Of a DNA stretch of 64,000 nt, positions 35,716 to 35,830 are shown in pieces. Source of the DNA: Escherichia phage vB_EcoM_Lh1B; sequence record OK428535.1. One strand, given 5' to 3'. Each line of letters begins with the position of its first letter. The stretch's first letter is position 1. Under the pieces are notes generated by a model. That model had not been told where the DNA came from and did not search any database. It saw only the letters and a list, made by a program, of their open reading frames with translations. The translations under genes and the position numbers were made by a program.

Positions 35716-35830
35716 AGCCCTCTAAACGCACTCACAACCTTCTAAAGCCTCTCTAACGGTAGAACGACCCTCTAAAGTGATAAAAGCTCTCAAAACGCGT
35801 TTGAGAGCGTTATAGAGGGTGTACTCTGAA
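35716..35830. promoter_or_regulatory. array of phased CCYTCTAAA direct repeats plus palindrome (candidate regulator-binding array)
   Basis: Copies at 35718, 35738, 35748, 35768 (10/20-bp phasing), palindrome GCTCTCAAA-ACGCG-TTTGAGAGC at 35786-35808, inverted copy at 35811-35820. Confidence 0.45.

Follow-up and report, generated by a model that had tools for sequence, protein, structure and literature searches.

An intergenic segment of Escherichia phage vB_EcoM_Lh1B, at positions 35717-35822 of the 64,000-nucleotide stretch of sequence record OK428535.1 analysed here (the window), contains what appears to be a cis-acting element built round one module of about 40 bp (35780-35822). Copies of the module occur in jumbo phages of four genera, in T5-like, Felix O1-like and PVP-SE1-like phages, in IncX plasmids and in satellite-like islands of E. 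coli. The comparisons support a real, selected and helically phased element in DNA that does not look transcribed, with the appearance of a binding array for a sequence-specific DNA-binding protein. Our preferred interpretation, offered tentatively, is that the segment would act as a DNA-level platform for a protein partner common to many elements. That a protein binds, which kind of protein it is and what process it serves, we infer from the sequence comparisons described below.

The window belongs to an SPN3US-like jumbo phage of the genus Seoulvirus. Over the 2 kb around the array, identity is 96-98% to 32 records of Salmonella, Escherichia and Proteus phages, each of about 240 kb, and window position x corresponds to approximately x+29,570 in SPN3US (NC_027402).

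The module and its strain-specific additions

A first-pass annotation of the window had described four direct copies of CCYTCTAAA, spaced 10 or 20 bp apart on one face of the DNA, together with a palindrome with 9-bp arms and an inverted copy downstream of it. The palindrome and the inverted copy, TTATAGAGGGT at 35810-35820, both proved to be exact. Three of the direct copies, those at 35718, 35738 and 35768, are exact as well; the one at 35748 is degenerate and differs between strains. In six close genomes four columns of this copy are variable, with relatives reading CCACTCTAA, CTACCCTAA and CTAGTCTAA, and no other spot of the region varies more between close relatives. The helical phasing stands, with the exact copies at intervals of 20 and 30 bp (35718 to 35738 to 35768).

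CCYTCTAAA, for which the same annotation had proposed a genome-wide search, is clustered far beyond chance. Exact matches number four in the 64-kb window against 0.8 expected, three of the four lie inside a single 59-bp stretch, and none of 1000 first-order Markov simulations contained even two matches within 60 bp. In the 240-kb SPN3US genome CCCTCTAAA occurs four times, both strands counted, always within copies or partial copies of the element. Across six SPN3US-like genomes, one of 27 columns is variable in the three exact copies compared with 10 of 36 in the intervening spacers (Fisher p=0.017), which indicates selection on the units and not on the whole zone; at 35798-35821, 2 of 24 columns vary. 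The proposal that the 243-bp spacer as a whole is better conserved than the genes was dropped: it is true of BLAST identities, but column counts trace it to the terminator and to the promoter plus leader and not to the repeat zone.

The direct copies, on which the first-pass annotation put the emphasis, are found only in SPN3US-like strains and are not the core of the element. What is conserved is the palindrome together with the inverted copy; the two form the module, one copy of the composite consensus aAAAnCGCTTAGAAnGCGTTACAGAGCGTTTTAGAGGgTAT. In the window its first unit is diverged (35786-35796), the second is GCGTTTGAGA (35797-35806) and the third is GCGTTATAGAGGG (35807-35819). The corresponding consensus units in the alignment are nCGCTTAGAAn, GCGTTACAGA and GCGTTTTAGAGG, the last followed by (G)TAT. 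Since the units are not interchangeable in the alignment, the module is a composite site of about 40 bp and not a simple iteration. A profile hidden Markov model (HMM) made from 19 copies elsewhere matches 35780-35822 with E=3e-9. A profile made from ten non-jumbo copies alone finds the same interval at full length with E=1.1e-7, as the sole significant match in the 64 kb, and on SPN3US it finds 137541-137581 with E=1.2e-9.

The additional copies in SPN3US-like strains are related to the end of the module. The copy at 35718 is the reverse complement of the last unit (GCGTTTAGAGGG), and 13 nt of it pair with 35808-35820 in predicted folds; the copy at 35768 forms an 8-nt perfect inverted repeat with 35813-35820. 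The palindromic form is likewise specific to these strains, with two left-arm bases altered in MET_P1 and one right-arm base in SPFM2. The coordinates of the features are collected in the table.

A second palindrome, at 47756-47772, had been called related to the array. It exists, as TTATAGAG-TAG-CTCTATAA, a perfect hairpin with 8-bp arms where a short spacer separates a stop codon from the ATG of the next gene (47787); the profile of the element gives no match there. TATAGAG is not enriched in SPN3US, with 13 occurrences in 240 kb against about 29 expected by simple arithmetic from a uniform base composition.

Table. Features at the element in the window and, in the last four rows, the Nlig-Ia genes of related phages in the coordinates of the stretches named.
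Feature	Position	Strand	Sequence and remarks
Intrinsic terminator of the upstream 265-aa gene	35680..35716	+	10-bp stem GCCTGGTCTC...GAGACCAGGT (35680-35704), then T-run; terminator scan
Extra subsite copy 1	35718..35726	+	CCCTCTAAA(CGC); invariant in six SPN3US-like genomes
Extra subsite copy 2	35738..35746	+	CCTTCTAAA; invariant in the six genomes
'Copy 3' of the first-pass annotation	35748..35756	+	CCTCTCTAA; degenerate, outside CCYTCTAAA, not conserved
Extra subsite copy 3 (fourth copy of the first-pass annotation)	35768..35776	+	CCCTCTAAA; one change in the six genomes, CCCTCTATA in JN03
Conserved composite module	35780..35822	+	ATAAAAGCTCTCAAAACGCGTTTGAGAGCGTTATAGAGGGTGT; profile HMM; orthologous copies in four jumbo genera
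Palindrome, 9-bp arms	35786..35808		GCTCTCAAA-ACGCG-TTTGAGAGC; exact; inside the module
Early-promoter motif	35840..35857	+	TTTCAGATATATATTACC; context only, outside the element; followed by a 58-nt leader
Nlig-Ia gene, L005	1646-2050		annotated 'putative DNA ligase'
Nlig-Ia gene, L008 (pEa29)	2149-2544		annotated 'putative DNA ligase'
Nlig-Ia gene, L012	2134-2538		annotated 'putative DNA ligase'
Nlig-Ia gene, L017	2155-2565		annotated 'putative DNA ligase'

Distribution among phages, plasmids and satellites

The orthologous spacers 3' of the homologue of the upstream 265-aa gene were compared from 14 further phages. The module is present at this locus in Seoulvirus, Erskinevirus, Machinavirus and Wellingtonvirus, whose upstream protein is only 47-79% identical. 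The carriers are the divergent Seoulvirus phages SPAsTU and pEa29, the Erskinevirus phages phiEaH2 and Asesino, the Machinavirus phages ChrisDB, Machina, Caitlin, pSal04 and pEa4, and Wellingtonvirus. Outside the SPN3US-like strains it consists of three tandem units, exemplified by GCGCTTAGAGA GCGTCTGAGG GCGTTATAGAGGG in ChrisDB. In the Derbicusvirus phages Phobos, CR5 and EarlPhillipIV the terminator runs directly into the promoter, and no module is found at this locus.

For genome-wide pattern counts the SPN3US genome was assembled from five fetched stretches. The pattern GCGTTWNAGAG occurs six times on its plus strand; four occurrences are at 65.3 kb and at 137,556 and 137,566, and a fifth is a single unit at 240,059. 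A second full module, ACGCTTTTAGAGA GCGTTACAGA GCGTTTTAGAGGG, occupies 137541-137580, where it lies between convergent genes, 10 nt 5' of a bidirectional terminator and with no promoter nearby. Weak partial modules were also seen in a non-coding region of about 1.7 kb across the ends of the SPN3US record (239,883-240,413 plus 1-1185; L022 and L018). The 200 bp with the lowest GC content in the genome (27%) lie here; they include a long AT stretch resembling a palindrome (100-210) and have GC-rich CGCGTGCG repeats on their flanks. The region is a candidate for an origin or another cis region.

A BLAST search with the 137.5-kb copy matched unannotated DNA of unrelated phages. The order of the three units is identical in each of the three that were inspected, the T5-like phage STG2 (ACGCGTTAGAAT GCGTTACAGA GCGTTTTAGAGC), the PVP-SE1-like phage EspYZU14 of the Vequintavirinae (GCGCTTAGAAA GCGTTTTAGA GCGTTTTAGAGGG TATCCC) and the Felixounavirus VSe11. 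A 41-mer consensus matched 698 phage records, 467 of them with at least 80% coverage, and among the matches listed nearly all have no annotation beneath them. In T5-like phages the match falls inside the terminal repeats. STG2 contains three modules in the non-coding regions of its terminal repeats (L036 4059-4084, plus strand, and 4552-4584, minus strand; L023 1493-1534), and each is followed by a CTGTATA..TATACAG palindrome. Two of the modules, in inverted orientation, bracket about 470 bp that contain three DnaA boxes and an AT-rich core.

Among plasmids the 41-mer matched 1645 records, 1529 with most of the query, and many are about 33 kb long, the size of IncX plasmids. In the IncX plasmid p504237_36 (L026) two modules (3000-3042 and 3190-3232) lie in the spacer of about 1 kb (2275-3336) between the pi gene (repB) and the stbD/phd antitoxin gene. 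They share this spacer with six 22-bp iterons (AAAAATCCTCTCACCTTTCGTT), from which the module is distinct, with two DnaA boxes and with degenerate GCGTT units (3130-3170). Around 2800-2870 the spacer may also resemble the primosome-assembly-site region of pBR322. The IncX1 map agrees with the arrangement of the gamma-origin spacer between pi and stbD (PMC3332091).

Complete E. coli genomes contained matches to the 41-mer in 1109 of 5426 cases, mostly on plasmids; the two chromosomal loci examined are both in prophage-like islands. The capsid-forming PICI (cf-PICI)-like islands, which encode integrase, capsid and baseplate proteins, carry both a two-unit copy immediately 3' of the integrase terminator and a full module (L028 3500-3526; L044 2401-2425 and 2550-2589); the full module lies 5' of a sigma-70-like promoter, in non-coding DNA of about 2.3 kb. 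In the second E. coli island the module is placed within a repeat-rich non-coding stretch of 2.6 kb. An exact-pattern scan of IMG/VR identified 43 viral contigs in about a dozen unrelated contexts, and the same type of scan of 185,579 species-representative bacterial genomes gave 11 hits, which is about chance level. There is thus no sign of a host regulon, and the module is specific to mobile elements. Full modules on contigs binned with 'Eubacteriales' and 'Bacillota' metagenome-assembled genomes (L073 4956-4992; L082 2871-2909) were noted separately; because the genes of L082 are near-identical to those of the cf-PICI-like family, both contigs are probably mis-binned enterobacterial mobile elements. 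Weak matches in coding sequence, within the MobV relaxase genes of 2-kb plasmids, were put down to chance.

A literature search with the sequence strings of the module returned only guide scaffolds of CRISPR and unrelated primers; subscription work on R6K, T5 or Felix O1 might hold a description. Within the searchable literature the module appears to be undescribed.

Setting of the locus and alternative readings

The array occupies a 243-bp spacer between the 265-aa gene (34876-35673) on the left and a run of genes for proteins of 47-62 aa, starting at 35916, on the right. These proteins are annotated as hypothetical, and a Pfam scan of the 265-aa protein and its small neighbours revealed no domain. 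The terminator upstream and the promoter motif downstream of the array, both indicated by the first-pass annotation, were confirmed. The terminator is retained in every relative sampled, with 1 of 37 columns variable among six Seoulvirus genomes. The promoter motif is conserved in all relatives compared and recurs upstream of genes, as expected of an AT-rich early-operon motif of about 10 nt. AT-rich motifs have been described as early promoters of the virion RNA polymerase of jumbo phages (PMC7598289), and the motif at 35840 has the character of this type. A second copy in the window (26725-26742) directly follows a terminator and has no module upstream, and CAGATATATATTAC has five exact copies in SPN3US, each about 70 nt 5' of a gene start.

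Some further features of the spacer were noted. The last unit with its tail (TTTTAGAGGGTATTAC in ChrisDB and pEa4, TTTTAGAGGGTATTTAC in IncX) resembles the early promoter TTTCAGATATATATTAC at about 13 of 17 positions, judged by eye and with one gap; the comparison in the window is of 35807-35825 with 35840-35857. A promoter scan recognised no sigma-70 promoter within the element. In SPFM2 a 26-bp tandem duplication (L004, about 1186-1211) has given rise to two early-promoter cores (GATATATATTACCTAGGTGATAGAAGA). Ambiguous bases (n) are scattered in the window (35534, 35537, 26575-26617, 47826-47863), which suggests an assembly of lower quality or a consensus assembly and slightly inflates the apparent divergence of the coding flanks.

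Recognition of the module as DNA is favoured by the sequence evidence over a role in RNA or translation. According to the rival view, the module would serve accessory genes placed after it, as a 5' leader or by promoting ribosome loading or stability, and in SPN3US it would be a relic of such a gene since lost; we consider this improbable. Speaking for it are four phages, SPAsTU, pEa29, pSal04 and pEa4, in which a gene for a stand-alone Nlig-Ia protein (a ligase-like NAD-binding domain) of 134-136 aa separates the module from the promoter; the domain was recognised with E=4e-28 to 7e-27 in the three copies scanned, those other than pEa29 (L005, L012, L017). The last unit of the module, as GGAGG or GAGGG, lies 8-10 nt 5' of the Nlig-Ia start codon and serves as the Shine-Dalgarno sequence of the gene. 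Viral contigs of the L038 and L055 types have a start codon 11-25 nt after the module, ChrisDB retains the same AGAGGGTATTAC leader without the Nlig-Ia gene, and the majority of copies are co-oriented with their neighbours. The minus strand of 35712-35830 also folds better than shuffled sequences (z=-3.1, single-sequence), a value that derives only from the strain-specific inverted repeats.

Arguing against a function in RNA is the lack of a conserved structure. RNAalifold applied to 18 independent copies gave a consensus of -2.2 kcal/mol with a covariation term of +0.18 and no conserved fold, and searches of Rfam at permissive E-values with the window locus and the 137.5-kb locus of SPN3US returned best E-values of 0.9-8, far below gathering scores. 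The module matches no described family of structured non-coding RNA and shows no covarying fold. In two families (L032, L071) it is antisense to both flanking genes. Its usual position is beyond a strong intrinsic terminator with no recognisable promoter between, and no gene follows the two SPN3US copies, the IncX copies or the T5-like copies; the extra copies are conserved in SPN3US-like strains though no gene follows them.

A little less probable again is that the module is a boundary, a conserved joint serving as a homology arm for the exchange of accessory cassettes between co-infecting elements and having no other function. Gene content switches exactly at the 3' edge of the module: in two genera that share the joint, the interval from module to early promoter either contains the Nlig-Ia gene, whose role is probably accessory or anti-defence, or lacks it. 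The SPFM2 duplication lies just downstream, copies in many elements are situated in variable, small-gene or large non-coding regions, and the flanks are unrelated between unrelated elements. Promoter-stem-loop cassettes of the T4 type mediate modular shuffling. They resemble the module as short conserved non-coding units bordering variable cassettes of small genes, with genes gained or lost at the edge, and differ in that the module has no recognisable sigma-70 promoter and spans unrelated phage families and plasmids. A passive joint would preserve neither the conservation of single units amid variable spacers nor the order of three units across families without flanking homology, and recombination at a conserved site is the expected consequence of conservation, not its cause.

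An iteron-type phage origin, a narrower form of our preferred interpretation, would have the repeats as binding sites of an initiator that melts the AT-rich promoter region next to them, perhaps with the aid of early transcription. We regard it as rather unlikely. The module resembles the iterons of the R6K/IncX gamma origin and of the lambda origin in its short, phased, non-coding direct repeats next to AT-rich DNA; T4 oriE is a further iteron-type system for comparison. Phased direct units are present at 35797 and 35807, 10 bp apart, with the extra copies at 20 and 30 bp. The two SPN3US copies abut two of the twelve lowest-GC 200-bp windows of the genome (65391, 35% GC; 137456, 36%), the AT-richness at 65391 being accounted for by the early promoter itself. 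A DnaB-like helicase gene is located 2.4 kb away, the IncX copies are within the gamma-origin spacer and the T5-like copies flank DnaA boxes. The terms 'origin of replication', 'replication origin' and 'iteron' are absent from the main text of a 2026 review of jumbo phages. Iterons proper, however, are four to seven near-identical units of 17-22 bp, whereas the module has three non-equivalent units of 10-11 bp, and only two or three units lie in one orientation. No cognate initiator gene was found: the neighbours have no Pfam match, and no protein is shared between module neighbourhoods. The same sequence, moreover, spans elements with unrelated initiators and replication systems, Derbicusvirus lacks it at this locus, and no skew signal accompanies it. 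A stretch taken to be R6K gamma-origin sequence reached only 6 bits against the module profile and was dropped.

That the array is an operator or enhancer, on which a phage regulator would turn the 35840 promoter on or off, was part of the first-pass annotation, and the chances of this are slim. The module of the window ends about 20 bp 5' of the promoter motif, a similarly short distance is found in ChrisDB, Caitlin, Asesino, phiEaH2, Machina and Wellington, and helical phasing would be compatible with cooperative binding. Yet five other copies of the promoter, the one at 26725 in the window and four exact ones in SPN3US, have no module upstream; Derbicusvirus retains terminator and promoter without a module; and in SPAsTU, pEa29, pSal04 and pEa4 a gene of about 400 bp intervenes. 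The 137.5-kb module of SPN3US sits between convergent genes, and other phages and plasmids contain the module without such a promoter. It is therefore neither a regular companion of promoters of this class nor held at a fixed distance from them; the module is independent of the adjacent promoter. The idea of a cooperative DNA-binding array was right in kind, given a conserved sequence without an RNA fold, and erred in its emphasis on the direct copies and in the link to the promoter.

Very unlikely, finally, is a transcription insulator in which the repeats would be incidental and the plus-strand terminator at 35680 would be paired with the palindrome, which on the minus strand (35808-35786) is followed by TTTTAT (TTTTATCAC) and scores as an intrinsic terminator. 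The two facing hairpins bracket the CCYTCTAAA copies, and both are recovered by the terminator scan, which found 3 where 0.6 were expected. Against this, the palindrome is restricted to SPN3US-like strains, and base changes weaken it in MET_P1 and SPFM2; direct units take its place in other genera, and no minus-strand gene lies upstream for 2.3 kb.

A proposed shared partner and a probable role in DNA maintenance

In the interpretation that we prefer, a protein-binding platform made of DNA, the three units of about 10 bp place their GCG...AGAG cores on one face of the helix, and a sequence-specific DNA-binding protein would probably dock over successive helical turns. To the module, SPN3US-like phages have joined three further copies of its terminal unit in inverted form (CCYTCTAAA, spaced 20 and 30 bp), which would permit a larger, possibly looped or wrapped, complex. 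Unrelated phages and satellites as well as IncX plasmids, from Enterobacterales and Vibrio, have the same module, and the partner therefore probably belongs to the host or is shared by many mobile elements. Its task is probably DNA maintenance, in the sense of the start or priming of replication or the organisation of DNA, and not control of the early promoter. The gamma-origin context in IncX, the DnaA-box context in T5-like phages and the AT-rich neighbours in SPN3US are weak hints of such a role.

Several observations weigh against this interpretation. An all-against-all BLASTP comparison of open reading frames (ORFs) within 2.5 kb of 22 copies revealed no protein family common to module neighbourhoods across families. 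Among SPN3US-like strains, 17.5% and 11.6% of columns vary in the repeat zone as a whole, compared with 5-10% in the genes beside it. The majority of copies point in the same direction as the flanking genes, and the use of the last unit as Shine-Dalgarno sequence of the next gene in several families fits a role in RNA or translation. The cumulative GC and AT skew of SPN3US contributes no support, as the GC skew tracks gene orientation and marks no origin. DnaA boxes accompany only the T5-like and IncX copies; the jumbo, Vequintavirinae and Felix O1-like copies have none nearby, and the units, only three and non-equivalent, are unlike classical iterons. A phage nucleus excludes most host proteins, which complicates a model based on a host factor. 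SPN3US makes such a nucleus (PMC13282480). In T5, according to Davison (bioRxiv 10.1101/866236), the origins were mapped near the centre of the genome, not in the terminal repeat.

Comparison with known binding sites did not lead to a partner that we would name. Set beside the consensus sequences of Fis, IHF, DnaA, LexA, CRP, Tus/Ter, NusB-boxA, ArcA, PhoP, CpxR, OmpR and DeoR, the TGAGnG motif of pi, integron attI sites and the Cas9 repeat (GTTTTAGAGC), the module appears to show no more than partial resemblance, and none is claimed.

Systems with a comparable layout include the untranslated repeat regions of the T5 terminal repeat, of which the module is physically part in T5-like phages. 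Centromeres for partition, such as parC/ParR and tubC/TubR of the type II and type III systems and the dispersed centromeres of N15, are intergenic tandem repeats of about 10-12 bp that are bound cooperatively and occur at more than one site per genome. The module shares with them the intergenic position, the repeat length and the plurality of sites. It differs in having only two or three units per site and mostly lytic phages as carriers, and in lacking adjacent genes for an adaptor and an NTPase, the flanking proteins being without Pfam domains. The par site of pSC101, through gyrase, and cer and psi, through ArgR, PepA and ArcA, are stability sites that act in cis through host factors without a protein of their own. 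Judged by description and not by sequence, they are similar to the element as protein-less cis sites of direct and inverted short repeats. For the T5 repeat regions themselves, Davison (bioRxiv 10.1101/866236) reports a candidate injection-stop signal, better conservation than that of the surrounding ORFs and sites for a host protein (DnaA). The paper names many repeats; its sections searched here give no sequences or function matching the module and note no occurrence outside T5-like phages. The jumbo phages differ from T5 in lacking two-step injection and, at these loci, DnaA boxes.

A bolder proposal, which we consider unlikely on balance, is that the module is an undescribed cis-acting 'landing pad', either for one factor conserved in Enterobacterales and Vibrionales or for a universal step of DNA replication or organisation, and marks a dependency on the host that very different elements have in common. 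It would have been acquired and retained by unrelated lytic phages of the jumbo, T5-like, Felix O1-like and PVP-SE1-like kinds, by capsid-forming satellites and by IncX plasmids, and SPN3US-like phages would have expanded it into a convergent multi-site array.

Hardly any cis-acting DNA sites of jumbo phages are known, and the main text of the 2026 review describes no origin or similar site. An element of about 40 bp that is kept alike by such different elements points to a shared requirement, be it a host protein or a step in DNA handling. If this is true, the module would offer a handle on the replication or organisation of these genomes and a marker with which non-coding DNA could be annotated in hundreds of phage and plasmid entries that now show no feature there. 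It would also assign a testable function to part of the long-puzzling repeat regions of T5, and it would reveal a common host dependency, and possibly a common vulnerability, of very different mobile elements.

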